Source: Chloroflexota bacterium
Lineage (GTDB): Bacteria; Chloroflexota; Limnocylindria; Limnocylindrales; CSP1-4
Direction: 5' to 3'
Assembly: GCA_034430475.1 (NCBI GenBank)
Contig: DAOUEA010000055.1
Span: forward strand, 18,008 to 82,007
Length of the DNA stretch: 64,000 nucleotides
A model generated the notes under the pieces. It saw nothing but the letters and a program-made list of their open reading frames with translations. It ran no database searches and was not told the DNA's origin. Of this stretch, positions 3,760 to 45,683 are shown in pieces. How positions within the stretch are numbered: the first letter of the stretch is position 1; every line of letters begins with the position of its first letter. A program made the position numbers and the translations under genes.

Positions 3760-6207
3760 CTAGTAGATGGCTTCGATCTCCATCGTCTGGCCGACCTTCG
3801 CGGGCAGCGGGGCCAGGTGGCCCTCGATCTCCTTGCCGTCGACGACCAGCCGAGTCACGCGCCCGGTCGAACCCTTGGGCTTGCGGACGGTGATGTCGTA
3901 GGTGGCCCCGCGGAAGTGGCGGGTGACCTTGAATTCACCCCAATCGGCCGGCAGGACGGGGTCGATGCGCAGCCCGTCGTGCTCGGCGCGGATGCCCAGG
4001 ATCCACTGGGTGATGGCCACGTAGTTCCAGGCCGCCGTGCCGGTCAGCCACGAGTTCTTGGCCTCGCCGTGAGTCGGGGCGTCCTTGCCGGCGATCATCT
4101 GGGCGTAGACATAGGGCTCGCAGCGATGGACCTCGGATATCTCCTCGCGCGCCGACGGGCACAGCCGCATGTAGTAGTCGAGCGCGGCTTCGCCGTCGCC
4201 GACGCGAGTCTCGGCGATCATGACCCAGGGGTTGGTGTGGCAGAAGACCCCGGCGTTCTCCTTGTAGCCCTCGGGGTAGGTGGAGATCTCGCCCAGCTCC
4301 GGGTAGTAGTGGCTGTAGGCCGGGTTGTTGACCACGATGCCGTGGGGCGTGGCCAATCGCTCCTTGACCGAGCGCAGAGCCTTGACGGCCAGCCCGTCCT
4401 GGAGGCCGATCCCAGCCGCGACGCAGATGCCCTGGGGCTCGATGAAGATCTGGCCCTCCTGGCACTCCTTCGAGCCGACGGGGTGGCCGAAGTAGTCGTA
4501 GGCCCGCCGGAACCACTCGCCGTCCCAGCCGGCCGTCTCGACGACCTGCATCATCGCGCCGACCGCTTCGAGGCAGCGCCGGCTCTCGGTCTGGTCGTGG
4601 CGCAGGGCCGCGATCTCGGCCATCTCGGTCGCAGCCAGGACGAACAGGCCGGCGATGAAGACCGACTCGGCGACGCCGCCCTCCTTGTTCTCGGTCGTCT
4701 GGAATGACTCGCCGGGCGTCTGCGAGAAGCAGTTGAGGTTCAGGCAGTCGTTCCAGTCGGCCCGCCCGATGAGCGGCAGCCCGTGCGGGCCGCGCCGGTC
4801 GAGGGTGTACTGGATCGAGCGCTGGAGGTGATCGTAGAGCGGCTTCTCGGTGCCGGTCTTGTTGTCGTACGGGACTGGCTCGTCGAGGATGGCCAGGTCG
4901 CCCGTCTCCTTGAGGTATGCCGCCACGCCCAGGACGAGCCAGGCCGGGTCGTCGTTGAAGCCCGTCCCGACGGAGTTGTTGCCGCGCTTCGTCAGCGGCT
5001 GGTACTGGTGGTAGGCGCCGCCGGTGGGGAGCTGCGTCGCGGCGATGTCGAGCAGCCGCCCGCGGGCCCGGGCCGGGACCATGTGGACGAAGCCGAGCAG
5101 GTCCTGGCTGGAGTCACGGAAGCCCATGCCGCGGCCGATGCCCGACTCGAACATCGAAGCCGAGCGGCTGATGTTGAAAGTCACCATGCACTGGTAGGCG
5201 TTCCAGATGTTGACCATGCGGTTGACGTGCTCGCTGCCGGTCTGGACCTCGACGATGTCCAGCAGCTTGCTCCAGTAGTCGCGCAGGTCCGTGAAGGCCT
5301 TCTCGACCTCGGCCGGTTGGAGGTAGCGGGCGATGACCGGCTGGCAGCGCTTCTTGTTGATCGTCTGGGAGCCCGGGGGATCGAACTTCTCGTCCTGGGG
5401 GTTCTCCTGGTAGCCGAGCAGGACGATCACCTCGCGGGTCTCGCCGGGCGCCAGCTCAAGCTTGACGTGGTGCGAGCCCATCGGCTGCCAGCCGTGGGCG
5501 ATCGAATCGGCCGTCTTCCCCTGTTCGACCACGATCGGCCTGTCCCAGCTGCGGTAGGGGCCCAGGAAGGCGTCGCGCTGCGTCTCGAAGCCGGCCGCCT
5601 TCTCCGAGCAGGCGAAGTAGGCGAAGTGGTCGCGCCGCTCGCGGTACTCGCTCTTGTGGTAGATGACGCCGTCCTCTACTTCCACCTGGCCGATGGAGTA
5701 GTTGCGCTGGAAGTTGGTGGCGTCGTCGTTGGCCTCCCAGAGGCAGAACTCTATGGAGCTGAAGAGGGAGATCCTGGCCTTCGCCTTGCGCTCGTTGGTG
5801 ACGCGAATGCGCCAGATCTCCAGGTTCTCGCCCACCGGCACGAAGTACAGCGTCTGGGCGGCGATGCCCTTGTAGCGCGAGCCGATGATCGAGTAGCCCA
5901 TGCCGTGACGGCAGGAATAGTCCTCCAGATCGCGCTGAGTGGGTTGCCAGCTGGGGCTCCAGAACTCGCCCGATCCGTCGTCGCGGAGGTAGACGTAGCG
6001 GCCGCCCAGGTCCAGCGGGGCGTTGTTGTAACGATAGCGACTGATGCGCCGCAATCGAGCGTCCCGATAGAACGAGTACCCACCGGCAGTGTTGGAGATG
6101 ATGCCGAAGTAGGCCTCGCTGCCCAGGTAGTTGATCCAGGGCAAGGGGGTGTCGGGGCGAGTTATGACGTACTCGCGACTCTCGTCGTCGAAGTGCCCGT
6201 AACGCAC
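3760..6207 (-). CDS. cbp: GH94 cellobiose phosphorylase
   Basis: MRYGHFDDESREYVI, GRGMGFRDSSQD, RADWNDCLNL, KENAGVFCHTNPW; start reassigned to GTG 6207 behind AAGGAG. Confidence 0.9.
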   Translation of the reverse strand: MRYGHFDDESREYVITRPDTPLPWINYLGSEAYFGIISNTAGGYSFYRDARLRRISRYRYNNAPLDLGGRYVYLRDDGSGEFWSPSWQPTQRDLEDYSCRHGMGYSIIGSRYKGIAAQTLYFVPVGENLEIWRIRVTNERKAKARISLFSSIEFCLWEANDDATNFQRNYSIGQVEVEDGVIYHKSEYRERRDHFAYFACSEKAAGFETQRDAFLGPYRSWDRPIVVEQGKTADSIAHGWQPMGSHHVKLELAPGETREVIVLLGYQENPQDEKFDPPGSQTINKKRCQPVIARYLQPAEVEKAFTDLRDYWSKLLDIVEVQTGSEHVNRMVNIWNAYQCMVTFNISRSASMFESGIGRGMGFRDSSQDLLGFVHMVPARARGRLLDIAATQLPTGGAYHQYQPLTKRGNNSVGTGFNDDPAWLVLGVAAYLKETGDLAILDEPVPYDNKTGTEKPLYDHLQRSIQYTLDRRGPHGLPLIGRADWNDCLNLNCFSQTPGESFQTTENKEGGVAESVFIAGLFVLAATEMAEIAALRHDQTESRRCLEAVGAMMQVVETAGWDGEWFRRAYDYFGHPVGSKECQEGQIFIEPQGICVAAGIGLQDGLAVKALRSVKERLATPHGIVVNNPAYSHYYPELGEISTYPEGYKENAGVFCHTNPWVMIAETRVGDGEAALDYYMRLCPSAREEISEVHRCEPYVYAQMIAGKDAPTHGEAKNSWLTGTAAWNYVAITQWILGIRAEHDGLRIDPVLPADWGEFKVTRHFRGATYDITVRKPKGSTGRVTRLVVDGKEIEGHLAPLPAKVGQTMEIEAIY

Positions 6208-7548: not shown

Positions 7549-8424
7549 GTGACCACAAGCCGATCGCATCTGGTTGCAGGGCTGGTGGCCCTGCTCTTCG
7601 TCACCACCGCCTGCGGGTCGGGGGCCGCCTCGGCCGGGCCGGCCACGGACGGGGGGCCAGGCGAGACTCCGGCCGCAACGCAGGAGCCGGGAGAGGGCTC
7701 GTTGCCCTCCGGCGATTCGCAGGCCTCGCCTCTGCCTCCCGGGGCGGTGGCGATCGCCACCTTCGGCGACAGCCTGACCGAAGGCGACTGCGACGACTCC
7801 GGTCGCGGCTACCCCGGCCGCCTGCTGCCGATGATCGAGAAGATCCGGCCCGGGAGCACCATGCTCAACGTCGGCCACTCCGGCTGGACGTCGGGCGACC
7901 TGGCCAACACGGCCAACGACCCGCCGACCGACATCGCCCAGGCGATCGACAGCAGCCCGGACATCGCCCTCGTCTGGATCGGCTCGAACGACCTGTGGGC
8001 CCTCTACGAGTTCGGTCCCGAGCCCATGACCTCGGCCGCGGAGCAGGAGGACCTGGCCGCCTACGAAGCCAACCTGGACACGGTCCTGGGACGGCTGGCC
8101 GATCGCGGCGCGTCGATCTACATCGCCCTCCTGGACGACCAATCGAAGCGTCCGTGCGTCGCCGCTCCCGCAGATCCCTCTGCGCCGGACTTCCCGGAGA
8201 CCACCAAAGCCGATCTGGCCCTCATGTCCGCCCACGTGAGCGCCTACAACGACATCATCCGCCGCAAGGCGGCCGAATACGGCGCCGTGACCGTGGACTT
8301 CTACGACACCACGATCTTCACCGACTACGCCACTCTCTGCAGCGACGGCAACCACCCCAACGACAGCGGCTATGACGTCATCGCCGACATCTGGTTCGCG
8401 GCCCTGGAGCCAGCCCTGAGGTAG
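7549..8424 (+). CDS. SGNH/GDSL hydrolase lipoprotein
   Basis: GTG after GAGGAGGG; signal peptide ending TTAC; blocks GDSLT, GHSG, GSND and DGNHPN. Confidence 0.85.
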   Translation: MTTSRSHLVAGLVALLFVTTACGSGAASAGPATDGGPGETPAATQEPGEGSLPSGDSQASPLPPGAVAIATFGDSLTEGDCDDSGRGYPGRLLPMIEKIRPGSTMLNVGHSGWTSGDLANTANDPPTDIAQAIDSSPDIALVWIGSNDLWALYEFGPEPMTSAAEQEDLAAYEANLDTVLGRLADRGASIYIALLDDQSKRPCVAAPADPSAPDFPETTKADLALMSAHVSAYNDIIRRKAAEYGAVTVDFYDTTIFTDYATLCSDGNHPNDSGYDVIADIWFAALEPALR

Positions 8425-8826: not shown

Positions 8827-11800
8827 TTGGTGAGAGCCTTGTCCGAACTGCCCTACCGCGACCTGTTTCGCAGCACACCTCAGCCTCTGTTCCTGGTGGA
8901 CGAGGACAACGTGTGTGTCGACGCGAGCGAGGCAGGCGCCGCGCTGGTAGGGCTCAGCCGCGAGCAGCTGTTGGGTCGCAATCTCCTGACCCTGCTGTCT
9001 GAGGACTCCAGGGCGGACGTAGCATCCACACGCGACGAGCTGAAGGCCACCGGCATCGTCATCAGGCACGTCACGATGGAGTCGGCGGAGCGCGATCCAT
9101 TCCCGGCCGAGGCGATCTTCTCGACCACCTCCTCTGCCGCGTGCACGCTGGTCCATGTCCGCGACCGGCGCCACCAGCTCGAGGCAGAGGGGGCCCTGCG
9201 CGAGTTGCGCGAAATGCACCGTCTCTCGCAACCCGGCGAGAAGATCGAGGTACGAAGCTGGACCGACATGGCGAACGCCGCCCTCGAGCGGCTGTGCCAG
9301 GTCACCGGCGCGGACGCGGGCCTGGTGGTCCTCGTCGACCACGGTGGCCGCAATCCCCTGGAGGTTTCTCGCGGGACGAGCCCCAAGCTTGGCGGGCTCT
9401 TCCGAGGCCTCGATTCGCCGGCGCTCATGAAGGCCCTGAGCCGGCCCGGAGCGATGGTCCAGCTCGACGCGCTCGGCGGCTTCGAGGGCGCAGCCGGGGT
9501 GGCGGCCGAGGTGGCGGCCGAGGGCCTGACGAGCGGCCAGGTGATCAGCCTGCGGCGACAGGACGAAACGATCGGTCTTCTGGCCCTGGCCTCGCGCAGC
9601 CCCGTCTGGGTCGGGGCAGGGCCCGATCTGATCGGCGAGGCTGCCACGCAGCTTGTCAGCGCTCTCGACAATGCCCGCCTGATGGAGCGGTTGCGGCGCG
9701 GCCTGGAAGAGGAGCGGCGGCTGACGGGTCAGCTGGAAGCGCTGATGGGCCTGACGCTCCTGCCCCAGGGCGAGGCGGACGAGCGTGCCGGCGCACAGTT
9801 CCTGCTGGATCGAGTCGTTGCCGCGCTCGGCGCAGACGGTGGGTTCGCCGTCAGGCTCGTCGACGCCGACCTCGACGTGGTTGCCGCCCAGGGAGCGGCC
9901 ATTCGCATGGCCCGGGCCGTGGCCGCCAGGCCGGCCGAATCGTTCGCCTTCTGGCGGCGGCTGCTGGATCACCCCGAAATCGGAGCTTTCCAGATGACAG
10001 CCGCCGAGCTGCTCGGCAGCGGGCCCCCGGAGGGCGGTCTGGAAGTGGAGGCGGAGGCCGAGGCGGAGGTGGAGGTGGAGGCGGAGGCGGAGGCGGCCTG
10101 CTCAGTCTCGCCGCTTCGCGAGGGCGGCAGGGTGACGGGAGCGTTCGTATGTCAGTTCGCGCCGGGGCCAGACCCGGTCGACGAACGGACCCTCGAGGCT
10201 GTGGGGCGCATCGTCTCGATTGCCTACGCCAACGTCCGGATGAGCCGCGGCCTCAACGAAGCGGCGGAGCACGAGCGCCGCCTTACGGCCGAGTTGCGCG
10301 CCCTGCAGGAGCTGACCCTCCTGGGCGCCTCCACCGACGACGTGCACCGGTTGGCCCAGGAGACCATCGAGGCCGTCGCGGTCGCCACCGGGGCCACGGG
10401 CGGCGGCTATGTCCTGATCGACCCTTCGCGCGGCGCAGTCGAGCCGATCGTCTGGGTCGGCCAGCCGAGCCGACACTGGAGGCTGGACGAAGCCGAGCCC
10501 GCCACTCCCACCGACTGGCCGGCCCTGGAGACGCTCGAGGCCGAGCGCGTCTGGCTGTCCCGAGAGCCGCCCGAGCCACAGCCCCCGCCGCCGTCGGACC
10601 AGAAGCAGAGCGGACGGACAACGCGAGTCCACCCCGACTCGCAGGCCGTGTTGCCGCTTCACGTCGACGGCCGCATCTCAGGGGCGCTGCACCTCGAGTG
10701 GTCCGAGACGCCCTGGGCAGAGCAGCTCGACGGCCACTTCCTGGAGCCGATCGGGCGAATCTGCAGCATCTCGCTGGCCAACTTCAGGCTCCGCTCCGAG
10801 CTGCTACACCGCGCCGCGGCGCAACGGGCCCTTAGCCATCGGCTCGACACCCTCGACGAGTTGACCCGCATCGGCGAGGAGGCCAGCTCGTTCGAAGAGC
10901 TGGCCCACCGCACGGTCAGCCTCGTCCGTGAGGCCCTGGGGGCGACCGGCGTCTGCTACCTGTTGATGGAACCCGGACACCACTTCGAGACTCACGCCGT
11001 GGCCGGCGAGGCGGGCGCGTTCCGGCCCTGGCTCAAGGGCGTTCCGGCGCGGGACGTTCCCGGAGGCCAGCTGATGCTCACCGGCGGGGGCAGCAGTCTG
11101 GGCGACTTCATGGCCGGGGAGGTCAGCGAGCGCGTGCTGCCCATGGCCCAGACGACCGGCTTCCAGGCCTACGGCGCCATACCGATCCGCACCGGCGAGG
11201 AGCTCGCCGGGGCCCTGCTGTGCTTCTTCGAGCAGCCCACCCTCCGCCTGACCATCGACGAGGCGGCGCTTGATTCGGTGGCCCGCATCGGCGGCATCGC
11301 CCTGGCCAACTTCCGCCTGCGGGAGCGCCTGGTCGCGTCGGAGGAGCGCTACCGCACCCTGTTCGAGGAATCGCCGGACGCCTTCTTCGTCTCCGCTCTC
11401 GATGGCACCGTCCTCGACGCCAACGAGGCGGCCGTTCGCCTGTATCACGTCAACCGCGGCGAGATCCTGGGCCGCTACTTCGGCCAGCTCATCTCCGCGG
11501 ACGAGCGGGAGATGGCGCGGCGCCGGCAGATCGTCTGGACCCAGGGGCGCGGCACATTCAAGGATCGGGCTCGTCGCCCCGACGGCTCGGAGTTCCCCGT
11601 AGAGGTGGAGGTCCGCGTCGTGGAGCTGGGGGGCCAGCGGCGCTTCCTGTCGCTGGTGCGCGACCTGTCCGACCAGGAGCGTCTGACGAATGAGCTGCTG
11701 CAGGCCCAGAAGATGGAGGCTATCGGCCAGCTCGTCTCCGGTGTGGCTCACGAGCTGAACAACCCACTGGCGGCGATCATCGCCTTCAGCCAGCTCATAC

Positions 11801-17934: not shown

Positions 17935-17963
17935 TTGCGTATTTGCGCAACTTACTGTAGGAT
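17935..17963 (+). promoter_or_regulatory. Sigma70-type promoter of arsR with overlapping inverted repeat
   Basis: TTGCGT, 17 nt, TAGGAT, 6 nt, ATG; TTGCG-N6-CGCAA (17935-17950) covers the -35. Confidence 0.7.
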
Positions 17964-17969
17964 CTCTGC

Positions 17970-18263
17970 ATGCTCGAAGTAAGCGAACTCGAGGCAACGC
18001 GGCAACGATCGGCGGCGGTGGCCAGGGCCCTGGCCGATCCGAAGCGATTGTGCGTCCTGCAGTGCCTCGCGCGAGGCGAGATGTCGGTCCGGGACCTGTC
18101 CGAGAGAGTCGGCTGCCAGGTCCCGAACATGAGCCAGCATCTGGCCGTGCTTCGGAACTCGGGCCTGGTCCTGACCAGGCGCGACGGCAACACAATCTAC
18201 TACCGGCTCGCGGACACGCGGATCACGGACGCCTGCGAGCTACTCCAATCGATCTCAGGCTGA
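17970..18263 (+). CDS. ArsR/SmtB family transcriptional regulator, 4 Cys
   Basis: ALADPKRL, MSQHLAVLRNSGLV, RRDGNTIYYRL. Confidence 0.92.
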   Translation: MLEVSELEATRQRSAAVARALADPKRLCVLQCLARGEMSVRDLSERVGCQVPNMSQHLAVLRNSGLVLTRRDGNTIYYRLADTRITDACELLQSISG

Positions 18264-18304: not shown

Positions 18305-18646
18305 ATGGCCGACGTCAGAGAAGTAACGGACGAGACCTTCGAAGAGATCGTCCTCAACGCGGAGCGGCCGGTGATCGTCGACTTCTGGGCGGCCTGGTGC
18401 CAGCCGTGCCGCATGGTCGCCCCGGAGCTCGAACGCATCGCCGAGAAGTACGCCGGCGCAATCGATATCGTCAAGATGGACGTGGACGCGAACCCGGGCG
18501 TCTCCCAGGCGCTCCAGATCGCGACTCTGCCTACGATCGCCTTCTTCCGGCCCGGACTCCAACCCATGGCGGTGGTCGGAGCCCGTCCTGCGGAGCAGAT
18601 CGAAGCGGTCTTCGGCCTTTCGCAGTACGCTCCGGTCGCCAACTAG
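18305..18646 (+). CDS. trxA: Thioredoxin
   Basis: VIVDFWAAWCQPC active site; thioredoxin length; AAGGA RBS. Confidence 0.93.
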   Translation: MADVREVTDETFEEIVLNAERPVIVDFWAAWCQPCRMVAPELERIAEKYAGAIDIVKMDVDANPGVSQALQIATLPTIAFFRPGLQPMAVVGARPAEQIEAVFGLSQYAPVAN

Positions 18647-18672
18647 GCACCCACCGAATTCGAATACACCCC

Positions 18673-18735
18673 CGGGGCCTCCCCCTCGGCCCCGTATACG
18701 ACCCCGGCCTGCCCCCTCGGCCGGGGTCGTTCTTT
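18673..18735 (+). ncRNA. Twin-hairpin element with C-rich loops (6C-like RNA candidate; second hairpin is an intrinsic terminator)
   Basis: Stem 1 cggggcc/ggccccg with loop TCCCCCTC; stem 2 acgaccccggcc/ggccggggtcgt with loop TGCCCCCTC; followed by TCTTT. Confidence 0.5.
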
Positions 18736-18757
18736 GCGCCGCGAGGCAGGCAGGCGG

Positions 18758-19246
18758 TCAGCGGCCGGCGGCGGTCAGGATCGCTCTCAGCTCCGCCACG
18801 TGCTCCGCGTAGTGCTCGGTGGTGTTCTGGAGCAGCGTCTTCAGCGCGGCCTCGTCCTTGAGCCAGCGCGCCTCAGGGATCACCGTCAGGTAACCCCGCA
18901 GATCGCCCGGCAGGGACTCGAAGCGCTGTCGCACCTCGGCCATCGGCAAGGCCGCCCACTCGGCCTGGATGGCCGCATTGACTGCGTCGCCCTCCGTCTC
19001 CCAGCTACGGCCCAGCTCGCGCAGGCGCTCCATGGTTGGGCTCTCCGGGCCTACGGCCAGCTCCCGGGCGATCTCGAGCCACCACCCTATCCAGGCGCAC
19101 AGGTGGGCCATCAGGTCGCGGCCGGTCCAGTCGTGGGCACCCTCGACGGCCGCCTGCAGCTGCTCGTCCGTCAGTTCGAGCAGGGCCTCGAAGGGACGCC
19201 AGGCCTCGCGTTCCTCCTCCAGGTAGGACAGTCCGTTGGCGTACAT
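18758..19246 (-). CDS. DinB/maleylpyruvate-isomerase-N-like four-helix bundle protein
   Basis: WTGRDLMAHL, VNAAI, NTTEHYAEH; ATG 19246 after GGAGGAG. Confidence 0.75.
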   Translation of the reverse strand: MYANGLSYLEEEREAWRPFEALLELTDEQLQAAVEGAHDWTGRDLMAHLCAWIGWWLEIARELAVGPESPTMERLRELGRSWETEGDAVNAAIQAEWAALPMAEVRQRFESLPGDLRGYLTVIPEARWLKDEAALKTLLQNTTEHYAEHVAELRAILTAAGR

Positions 19247-19651
19247 GCCGCTCCTCCGAGGTAAGCCGGACGGGGGTGCTAGGTATGACCCGCCCAAATG
19301 GGTGGTGCGCCGACGCGCCTTACTTAGTGGCTGCCCCGGACACGCACGTACGGGCCATTGTAGAAGCGGGATTCCCGAGTAGGGTTGTCACTGGCCGCCG
19401 GCGACACCACTGGACGAAGAGCCAGGGCGTCGGATACGGGCCGAGGCTCTCGCAGACCGCCGTCTTTTTCGCGACCTGGAGATCGCCGAGGAGGCTGCCG
19501 GCCTCGACTACGACCCGAGCAACCATGGAGCAGCCGGCCCATCAAGGCTCTTCGGTCGGCGGCCGGGACTCATTTCTGGCGGGTGAGCGACCCGTCCGGG
19601 CATCCCGGGCGGGTCGTTTCTCCATCTCCGAGCCAGTTCGCGGCCGGCACC

Positions 19652-29845: not shown

Positions 29846-30817
29846 TCAGCTGGGCGAAGCCGTGACCTCGGCCGATGGCGAAGCCGTGACTTCGGCCGAT
29901 GCGGACCCCGATGCGGACGCTGTCGGCGTGGGAGTTGGGCACGGCGGGAGCGTCGGCTCGAGGCTTCCGGAGGCGCCGGCCGAAGCGGACGCACCGGGCG
30001 AAGCCGACATACCGGGCGACTCCGGGCCGACCGGTATGCAGGCAGCGGACGGCAGCGGCAGCTCCGACGGCTCGGGCATAGCCGGCAGCCCCAGCGTCAC
30101 CCGAATCAGAGCCCGCTCCGTCTCCCAGGTCTGATCTGCCTCCGGCAGCGTCTCCTCCATCGTCAGGATCTCTTCCGGCGTGTTGGCCTCATAGGCCGTC
30201 TTCAGCAGTTCGAGGTAGTGCTGCCCGTCCTTGATGAACAGATCCACGTAGTAGGCGGTCTCGCCGGTCTCGTCTGCCTCAGACCACCTGTCGTAGGCCT
30301 GGACGTCGTCCAGCCAGCCCTTGGTAGCGTCGTAGAAGGCCTTGTAGTCCGCCAGCTGAGCCACGAAATCGCGCCCGTGGCTGGCCAGGTCGTTGCGGGC
30401 CTGCTCGCGGGCAGGGCTCCAGCGGTCCTCGATCTGCTGCCAGCGGTCCTTCGGCTCGACGGGCGGCGGGTTGATGAAGCTGACCCAGACCCAGAGGACG
30501 GCCAGCAGCCCGAACAGGACGCCCAGCAGGGGCAGGTAGGCCGCGACCCAGCGGTACACAGTGCCGTGACGCTTCTTCTTCTTGACGGGTGCCTGGCGGG
30601 CGCGCCTGTCATCCGGCTGCACGGCCTCGACGTCCGAGAGCGGCTCCGCGCCCTCGGCCTCCGAGAGCGGCCACGACTCCGGGGCTTCCTCCAACGGGGC
30701 CTCGGACGGAGCCCCGGCCTGCGCCGCCGCCGGCTGCGGGGCGCGACTGCCGGGCTGGTGGCGATGGCGACTCCTTCGGCTGGCCGATCCCCGGCCATGC
30801 CGCGAACGGGGCGACAA
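29846..30817 (-). CDS. Hypothetical single-pass membrane protein
   Basis: TTG 7 nt after AGGAGG; KKKKR, then hydrophobic YLPLLGVLFGLLAVLWVWV, a helical domain and a Ser/Pro/Ala tail. Confidence 0.75.
   Translation of the reverse strand: MSPRSRHGRGSASRRSRHRHQPGSRAPQPAAAQAGAPSEAPLEEAPESWPLSEAEGAEPLSDVEAVQPDDRRARQAPVKKKKRHGTVYRWVAAYLPLLGVLFGLLAVLWVWVSFINPPPVEPKDRWQQIEDRWSPAREQARNDLASHGRDFVAQLADYKAFYDATKGWLDDVQAYDRWSEADETGETAYYVDLFIKDGQHYLELLKTAYEANTPEEILTMEETLPEADQTWETERALIRVTLGLPAMPEPSELPLPSAACIPVGPESPGMSASPGASASAGASGSLEPTLPPCPTPTPTASASGSASAEVTASPSAEVTASPS
29853..29900. repeat. 24-bp tandem repeat encoding SAEVTASP twice
   Basis: ggcgaagccgtgac(c/t)tcggccgat twice. Confidence 0.75.
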
Positions 30818-45432: not shown

Positions 45433-45558
45433 GAGCCTCTCTCTCCCTTGACAGTCCCGGGCTCAGTGCTGGTCCTCAGACTCCAGGCTCGGCCGGGCTC
45501 TGTGGGTTGATCGTAGCGATCCACGCAAGCCGCCACACGGCGTCTCTGCACGCGGCAC

Positions 45559-45593
45559 AAAGAGAACGCCCCCGGGGCGCGGTCCGGGGGCGT
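45559..45593 (-). terminator. Intrinsic terminator of tRNA-Glu
   Basis: acgcccccgg/ccgggggcgt stem followed by TCTCTTT on the minus strand. Confidence 0.75.
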
Positions 45594-45606
45594 AGGTGTC
45601 TGCGAC

Positions 45607-45683
45607 TGGTACCGCATATCGGATTCGAACCGATGATCTCCGCCTTGAGAGGGCGGTGTCCTGGGCCTCTAGACGAATGCGGC
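45607..45683 (-). tRNA. tRNA-Glu (CTC)
   Basis: Reverse complement GCCGCATTCGTCTAGAGGCCCAGGAC...CTCTCAA...GGTTCGAATCC...GCGGTACCA. Confidence 0.96.

Follow-up and report, generated by a model that had tools for sequence, protein, structure and literature searches.

Twin hairpins with C-rich loops at the 3' end of an arsR-trxA operon in Limnocylindria form a conserved element resembling 6C RNA

In a 64,000-nt stretch of Chloroflexota DNA (hereafter the window), two adjacent hairpins with C-rich loops lie just downstream of a thioredoxin gene, and we are highly confident that they constitute a selected, structured RNA element of the + strand that is specific to trxA in this clade. Our preferred reading, drawn by analogy with characterized RNAs and to which we give a probability of about 0.55, is that the element is the terminator and 3' UTR of the arsR-trxA transcript and would act as an anti-Shine-Dalgarno (anti-SD) regulator of the 6C/CcsR type.

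The first hairpin (HP1; 18673-18694, +) has a 7-bp stem, CGGGGCC/GGCCCCG, closed by the loop UCCCCCUC (-14.9 kcal/mol), and the second (HP2; 18698-18730, +) has a 12-bp stem, ACGACCCCGGCC/GGCCGGGGUCGU, closed by the loop UGCCCCCUC (-26.0 kcal/mol). They are separated by a linker of 3 nt in the window and together measure 64 nt, or 76 nt when the conserved 5' island and the tail are included. An earlier reading of the same DNA, made from the sequence only, had located the element at 18673-18735 and described two adjacent stem-loops with C-rich loops, the second of 12 bp; the coordinates proved exact and the two hairpins are read in the sequence as described. The U-rich tail that it reported is indeed present after HP2, as the terminator tail UCUUUG (18731-18736, +), albeit short with just 3-5 U; T85 is invariant in this tail and T87 is found in at least 90% of the sequences (window-row positions). 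The element starts 27 nt after the stop codon (18646) of trxA (18305-18646, +; Pfam Thioredoxin PF00085, 2.8e-29), which encodes a thioredoxin with the active site WCQPC and follows the first gene of the operon, encoding an ArsR-family HTH regulator (17970-18263, +; Pfam HTH_5 (arsR family), 4.3e-12). Between trxA and HP1 lies an A/U-rich island, CGAAUAC (18661-18667, +; family consensus CGAAUAYC), predicted to be single-stranded and a candidate endonuclease processing site; in the fold prediction, both loops and this island are more than 90% unpaired. On the other side, a DinB/MDMPI_N-like gene (18758-19297, -) converges on trxA. HP2 has the make-up of an intrinsic terminator, with a GC-rich hairpin (-26 kcal/mol) followed by UCUUUG and a convergent gene beyond, and is most likely, from its sequence, that of the arsR-trxA operon. 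Note that its tail is similar to the one of an ordinary terminator located after a tRNA gene of the window (45563-45594, -; ACGCCCCCGG-ACCGCG-CCCCGGGGGCGT followed by TCTCTTTG), which ends TTCTCTTTG.

We searched for relatives with a TrxA-based scan, taking one genome per species, and obtained 46 loci with TrxA 77-86% identical, all from metagenome-assembled genomes labelled Chloroflexota, Chloroflexia or Candidatus Limnocylindria/Limnocylindrales. The host is a member of the Chloroflexota, class Ca. Limnocylindria, and not of the Actinobacteria. Limnocylindria are an abundant, uncultured class of peat, soil and freshwater. All species representatives with a TrxA of at least 77% identity (46/46) have the element, its site and orientation being unchanged. 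Together with the window copy, these provide an unbiased alignment of 47 sequences (A1), from which all following mean pairwise identities were taken. HP2 is the most conserved part (93.6%), above the first and second codon positions of trxA (90.5%), and it is followed by its own loop (84.5%), HP1 (79.5%), the U-tail (72%) and the CGAAUA block with the bases up to HP1 (62%). By comparison, third codon positions of trxA are 62.7% identical, the 60 nt downstream of the element 41%, the linker between the hairpins 35% and the spacer after the trxA stop codon 23%. HP2 is also nearly invariant among the metagenome sequences described below, but the search pattern biases that observation, A1 alone being unbiased in this respect.

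The loops are kept as well. The motif CCCC(C)UC is present in the HP1 loop of 46/47 species, the remaining one ending in UU, and in the HP2 loop of 47/47. Runs of at least five consecutive C occur in 39/47 HP1 loops and 46/47 HP2 loops, and runs of at least six in 6/47 and 9/47, respectively; the window copy has 5 + 1 C in both loops, in line with the 5-C rather than 6-C loops announced by the sequence-only reading. The HP1 loop is shortened or degenerate in five lineages (L039, L044, L084, L097 and L141). Conserved stems with drifting loops would have spoken against a small RNA, and here both loops keep CCCC(C)UC in practically every one of the 47 species. Since terminators put no constraint on loop sequence, this conservation goes beyond what a terminator needs. 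As judged from the alignment, these identities show strong purifying selection on both the stems and the loops.

The secondary structure is itself supported by covariation, an analysis for which the sequence-only reading had called. We counted pairs in A1 on a hand-set structure, because the HP1 consensus of RNAalifold was distorted by alignment gaps, and re-checked them on a model-based alignment. In the 47 sequences, 99.4% of cells are paired and five pairs are changed on both sides, with a covariation score of 0.103 versus 0.065 +/- 0.004 in shuffles (reached by 0/500); when the partner columns are slid, pairing falls to 23-52%. Adding metagenome variants, for a total of 83 distinct sequences, brings the paired cells to 99.8% and the covarying pairs to six, and over the two sets sliding leaves 23-55% pairing. 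HP1 (99.7% paired) displays compensatory changes in 4/7 pairs, from GC to AU at two and from CG to UA at two; HP2 displays them in two pairs (CG to AU once, GC to AU once), and its basal pair changes from A-U to G-U in 11/47 species. In total, 31 cells are G-U on the + strand, corresponding to C-A mismatches on the - strand, versus 3 non-standard cells. As G-U pairs fit the + strand only, the structure under selection is that of an RNA transcribed in the trxA direction. A covariance model built for the family (R1) likewise gives 78-108 bits on the + strand and ~20 bits on the - strand. The case rests on these comparative data, the folding energy by itself standing out only slightly (z = -2.4 for both strands; -63 kcal/mol for the reverse strand). 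Two other structures were considered. A - strand G-quadruplex or i-motif was rejected, as its G-tracts are interrupted by the G to A covariations of HP1, and an attenuator-like alternative in which HP1 pairs with the 5' arm of HP2 was dropped on account of the convergent orientation of the genes downstream.

The operon to which the element is attached has a recognizable start. A putative promoter/operator (17935-17963, +) precedes arsR, with a -35 box TTGCGT (17935-17940), the 8-bp palindrome TTGCGCAA within the promoter spacer (17943-17950; layout TTGCGT-N2-TTGCGCAA) and a -10 box TAGGAT (17958-17963). We infer this function from the sequence; the block CTTGCGTnnTTGCGCAAnCTGTTGTAnAnT, followed by 6-7 nt and an ATG or GTG, is kept in 50/50 orthologous loci, and arsR is immediately 5' of trxA in the same 50/50. 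In the window the arsR ATG stands only 6 nt after the -10 box, so that the arsR mRNA is probably leaderless, and judging by the promoter/operator block arsR looks autoregulated. At the arsR promoter position of one relative (L017), 4-5 tandem CTTGCGTA units are found. The ArsR-family protein (17970-18263) has the Cys residues of an LCVLQC motif and two more Cys; its sequence suggests a thiol-based sensor (of redox state, metalloid or persulfide) placed over trxA and the attached RNA.

No conserved -35/-10 pair was found between the trxA stop codon and HP1 in the 47-sequence alignment, where the spacer is 23% identical, with the arsR promoter, conserved in 50/50 loci, as positive control for this search. 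The stretch of 5-27 nt that separates the stop codon from the CGAAU motif is not conserved in sequence, CGAAUAYC being the only conserved block before HP1. Two types of promoter were examined and rejected: a sigma-70 promoter of the element's own, as CGAATAC lacks a T at -7 in most species and the -35 is not conserved, and an ECF SigR-type GGAAT-N18-GTT promoter before HP1, for which the spacing is wrong (~28 nt). The sequence-only reading had left the choice between a 3' UTR-derived and an independent sRNA; because no conserved promoter precedes HP1, the former option is favored and the independent gene disfavored. From sequence, the simplest reading of the element is as the 3' end of the arsR-trxA transcript.

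Within the CGAAUA island, G and T are invariant and GAAT is nearly invariant over the 47 sequences. In most relatives, a further, sequence-variable hairpin forms across the trxA stop codon (mean -9.1 vs -5.4 kcal/mol for shuffled sequences), spanning ~-12 to ~+25 around the stop in L003, L005, L012, L013, L016, L032, L036 and others; it is weak in the window (18635-18654). CGAAUAYC is left exposed as an A/U-rich island between this hairpin and HP1. CcsR RNAs are freed by RNase E in a setting of this kind (PMC8034643); by analogy, processing at the island may set the 5' end of an RNA liberated here, and the stop-codon hairpin could then shield the 3' end of the trxA mRNA after such a cut.

The element is present once per locus. 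Allowing up to 3 mismatches, we found no further copy of the hairpin unit beyond chance in the 64 kb, and a filter-free search of the window with R1 gave no further copy. Its secondary match (45556-45638, -; 23 bits) was rejected as a paralogue, being composed of the T-arm of a tRNA (45610-45683, -), whose T-loop TCGAAT mimics the CGAAU motif, and of the ordinary terminator that follows it. An exact-pattern scan for HP2 over 241 million metagenome records returned 84 contigs with one copy each; trxA is immediately upstream on the same strand in 79/79 testable contigs, the other five being cut by contig ends. A dispersed repeat, against which the sequence-only reading had cautioned, is excluded by this single copy in the window, one copy per contig and trxA upstream in 79/79. 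Plasmids (PLSDB), GenBank phages and IMG/VR gave no match to the element, and a mobile or phage-borne origin was rejected on this basis. The heptamer CCCCCTC/GAGGGGG is about threefold depleted in the window: shuffles give 30.9 +/- 5.4 sites and the window has 10, the HP1 and HP2 loops accounting for two of them. This recalls the depletion of G-runs in mycobacteria (PMC6486639). In 47 relatives, the 1.5 kb on either side of trxA are likewise nearly devoid of C5/G5 runs, the two loops excepted.

Which known RNA does the element resemble? Scanned with Rfam at gathering scores, the window gave no family except three tRNAs. In a permissive scan, 6C (RF01066) came out on top, the window copy reaching 35.9 bits over model positions 1-75, below the gathering score of 47 and with E = 0.5 at whole-window scale; it is the only 6C match in the whole window at E <= 10. 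The model also matched 26/30 relatives over its full length (34.7-47.1 bits). All but one of these 26 stay below gathering (34.7-46.2 bits), the exception being L092, which has six C in both loops and reaches 47.1 bits. Control trxA loci of 65 kb (eight Actinomycetota and the outgroup L049) gave no 6C match at E <= 5. These scans show that the similarity to the 6C model is specific, as far as sequence models can tell. The 6C-like architecture proposed by the sequence-only reading thus stands as to the full-length matches in 26/30 relatives, behind which sX13, ar7 and ErsA trail, and the Rfam scan that it had suggested does give 6C as best match; the window copy nevertheless remains sub-threshold. 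Its second candidate, the cuckoo RNAs, fared poorly, ar7 obtaining only 21-28 bits in the relatives against a gathering score of 60. Because the family sits just under the 6C gathering score, automated annotation will be inconsistent; a model of its own, as R1 is (72-108 bits for members), would mend this. Sub-threshold matches to the Pseudomonas sRNA P10 were also noted at 30762-30814 (+; 25.6 bits) and 8316-8381 (+; 21.9 bits), versus a gathering score of 37; these are probably chance GC-rich hairpins.

The family 6C is defined by at least six conserved C in each of two loops, a length of ~80 nt, occurrence in Actinobacteria and a SigA/SigB promoter (PMC5014011), and no chaperone is needed for its loops to bind G-rich ribosome-binding sites (PMC6486639). 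Like 6C (B11/6C of Mycobacterium, Streptomyces and Corynebacterium), the element consists of two adjacent GC-rich hairpins with unpaired C-run loops and a short U-tract after the second hairpin, for a total of ~70-80 nt; the covarying HP1 and HP2 provide the two adjacent stem-loops of a ~80-nt RNA, the HP2 arm ACGACCCCGGCC resembles the 6C consensus acGgccCcCGCc, and an action of C-rich loops on G-rich ribosome-binding sites (PMC6486639) would fit this anatomy. It differs in taxon, being found in Chloroflexota (Ca. Limnocylindria) instead of Actinobacteria; in position, as a putative trxA 3' UTR/terminator that lacks its own promoter, 6C being a stand-alone gene; in HP1, which has 7 bp versus ~12 bp, and in a linker of 3-9 nt between the hairpins; in its loop, since UCCCCCUC has six C of which five are consecutive, versus at least six conserved in 6C; and in score, with all scored copies but one under the gathering score. 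We therefore describe the element as 6C-like and leave it outside the 6C family proper, because it departs from the family in taxon, in the score of the window copy and in the independent promoter, and agrees with the loop definition by half.

The best analogue for the proposed biogenesis and redox link would be CcsR and the cuckoo RNAs of Alphaproteobacteria (RSs0680, ar7/ar14). CcsR has two anti-SD loops and, in a genome of 69% GC, RNase E excises it from a 3' UTR by cleaving at A/U-rich sites (PMC8034643); these RNAs act in the oxidative-stress response (PMC8034643, PMC4615179). They share with the element two (up to four) adjacent hairpins exposing the same anti-SD-like C/U-rich loop. The layout seen here, with the same strand as the upstream gene, a spacer of 5-27 nt to CGAAU, no conserved promoter and an A/U-rich island predicted to be single-stranded, would be compatible with co-transcription and 3' UTR processing of the Rhodobacter type. 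Their loop is however CCUCCUCCC, versus (U)CCCCCUC here, their stems vary freely, whereas HP2 is nearly invariant, the upstream gene encodes a DUF1127 protein (ccaF1) instead of thioredoxin, and they occur as several tandem copies per locus instead of one; at the level of Rfam models, ar7/ar14 are among the trailing matches in relatives. sX13 (Xanthomonadaceae), which has three loops and its own promoter (PMC3771888), and Pseudomon-1/ErsA also have C-rich loops thought to pair with G-rich mRNA. Both belong to unrelated phyla and give weak secondary Rfam matches (sX13, 19-26 bits vs gathering 50; ErsA, 14-27 bits vs 50). RsaE/RoxS are C-rich-loop sRNAs as well. As for an ordinary high-GC terminator, HP2 and its short U-tract fit the local terminator style; the element differs from it by a second hairpin, a shared conserved loop motif and a conservation above that of the coding sequence.

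On this basis we propose the following mechanism. The twin hairpins would be the conserved 3' end of the arsR-trxA transcript, HP2 terminating the operon, and an endonuclease cut in the CGAAUAYC island just 5' of HP1 would release an RNA of ~75 nt. Its two unpaired CCCCCUC loops would pair with GAGGGGG-like Shine-Dalgarno sequences of other mRNAs, altering the translation or the stability of these targets. As the element has no promoter of its own, the RNA level would depend on how actively the ArsR-controlled thioredoxin operon is transcribed. The steps that we infer are terminator activity, processing at the island, anti-SD pairing in trans and the link to thiol/redox stress. Candidate targets were sought in the window, where none of the 8 other GAGGGGG sites lies at a credible start codon (the one at 9187 is internal to a 1529-aa ORF) and a relaxed 6-mer search gave internal sites or doubtful starts only. 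Within +/-1.5 kb of trxA in the 47 loci, no conserved G-rich complement was found; pairing in cis with the operon 5' region or the trxA ribosome-binding site was rejected on the same grounds. Note that the HP2 stem is nearly invariant in sequence, beyond the needs of a seed-presenting hairpin, which hints at a sequence-specific partner, possibly a protein.

Outgroup loci inform on a possible origin. In the three nearest ones (L047-L049), TrxA is 53-64% identical and an ArsR-like gene lies 5' of trxA, and the element is absent from all three; the convergent DinB-like gene is kept in L047 and L049. At the orthologous site these two loci have a plain terminator, CGACCCCGGC-TCAC-GCCGGGGTCG in L049 (~4400-4435) and GCCCCCGGC-CTGGT-GCCGGGGGC in L047 (~4392-4420), both sharing with HP2 the stem core CCCCGGC/GCCGGGG and lacking HP1. 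Such a terminator is possibly the ancestral state, and the comparison suggests that the element arose from it. The broader proposition, that the 6C type reaches beyond Actinobacteria as a Limnocylindria 6C-like RNA (true homologue or convergent) in a thioredoxin-operon 3' UTR, born from a terminator, is one that we hold tentatively, at somewhat less than even odds.

The main rival to an anti-SD regulator is an element working in cis only, whose hairpins would terminate the trxA mRNA and protect it from 3' exonucleases, the loops or the HP2 stem being a platform for a protein, e.g. a poly(C)- or hairpin-specific RNA-binding protein controlling trxA mRNA stability, with no pairing in trans. We regard it as rather unlikely, although several results are in its favor: HP2 and its U-tract are like the ordinary terminators of this genome, L049 and L047 carry the CCCCGGC/GCCGGGG core as a plain terminator, HP2 combines 93.6% identity with only two covarying pairs, an invariance exceeding the needs of pairing, and the searches of the window and of +/-1.5 kb around trxA in 47 loci found no target. 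Protein binding has moreover been raised as a reason for the stability of 6C (Pahlke 2016, PMC5014011). A stabilizer would however need no pair of identical C-rich loop motifs kept across 47 species, the characterized RNAs of such an architecture (6C, CcsR and sX13) all act by base-pairing (PMC6486639, PMC8034643, PMC3771888), and the conserved neighborhood, limited to arsR, trxA and the DinB-like gene, offers no candidate binding protein.

The full-length match to the 6C model, with L092 at 47.1 bits for a gathering score of 47, and HP2 arms (ACGACCCCGGCC) like the 6C consensus (acGgccCcCGCc) would also be expected of a true, independently transcribed 6C sRNA, inherited or horizontally acquired, and standing downstream of trxA by chance; the CGAAUAY block could even be a weak -10, reading GAATAT in one sub-clade. 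We find this improbable, given that 25/26 scored relatives and the window copy are under the gathering score, that HP1 has 7 bp instead of ~12 and is separated by a linker of 3-9 nt, and that most loops have five consecutive C and not six. There is no conserved -35, and the would-be -10 is mostly GAATAC, without T at -7, whereas a clear TTGCGT-17-TAnAnT promoter stands at arsR in the same genomes and actinobacterial 6C has a strong SigA promoter of its own (PMC5014011); 6C is also unlinked to trxA in the 8 Actinomycetota trxA loci. Much less probable still is a bidirectional terminator or DNA palindrome serving convergent genes without regulatory role for the RNA, HP2 stopping trxA and the reverse complement of HP1 followed by UAUUCG stopping the opposite gene. 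It is true that a convergent gene ends beyond the element, both in the window and in those relatives that we examined, that the reverse strand has a similar folding energy (-63 kcal/mol, z = -2.4), and that on the - strand HP1 is followed by a modestly U-rich stretch, the reverse complement of CGAAUA. Against this, the 31 G-U cells fit the + strand only and become C-A mismatches on the other, R1 gives ~20 bits on the - strand versus 78-108 on the +, position and orientation are fixed with respect to trxA, whereas the next convergent gene differs between loci in both distance and identity, and terminators leave their loop sequence unconstrained.

To our knowledge, no regulatory sRNA has been described so far in Limnocylindria. 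If the element is indeed a 6C/CcsR-like anti-SD regulator, the twin C-rich-loop design would reach a third high-GC lineage, after Actinobacteria (6C) and Proteobacteria (CcsR, sX13), and the output of a thiol-redox operon would be directly coupled to the translation of mRNAs with G-rich ribosome-binding sites. What is new is an RNA fused to trxA, pointing to a link with thiol/redox stress similar to that of CcsR, together with outgroup loci whose plain terminators suggest how such an RNA arose from an ordinary terminator; the locus would then document how a terminator turned into a trans-acting sRNA, first gaining a C-rich loop and then duplicating its hairpin. Finally, the thioredoxin itself varies at its active site, TrxA residues 31-35 (18395-18409) reading WCQPC in the window and WCGPC or WCHPC in relatives, so that the residue standing between Cys and Pro is variable within the clade.
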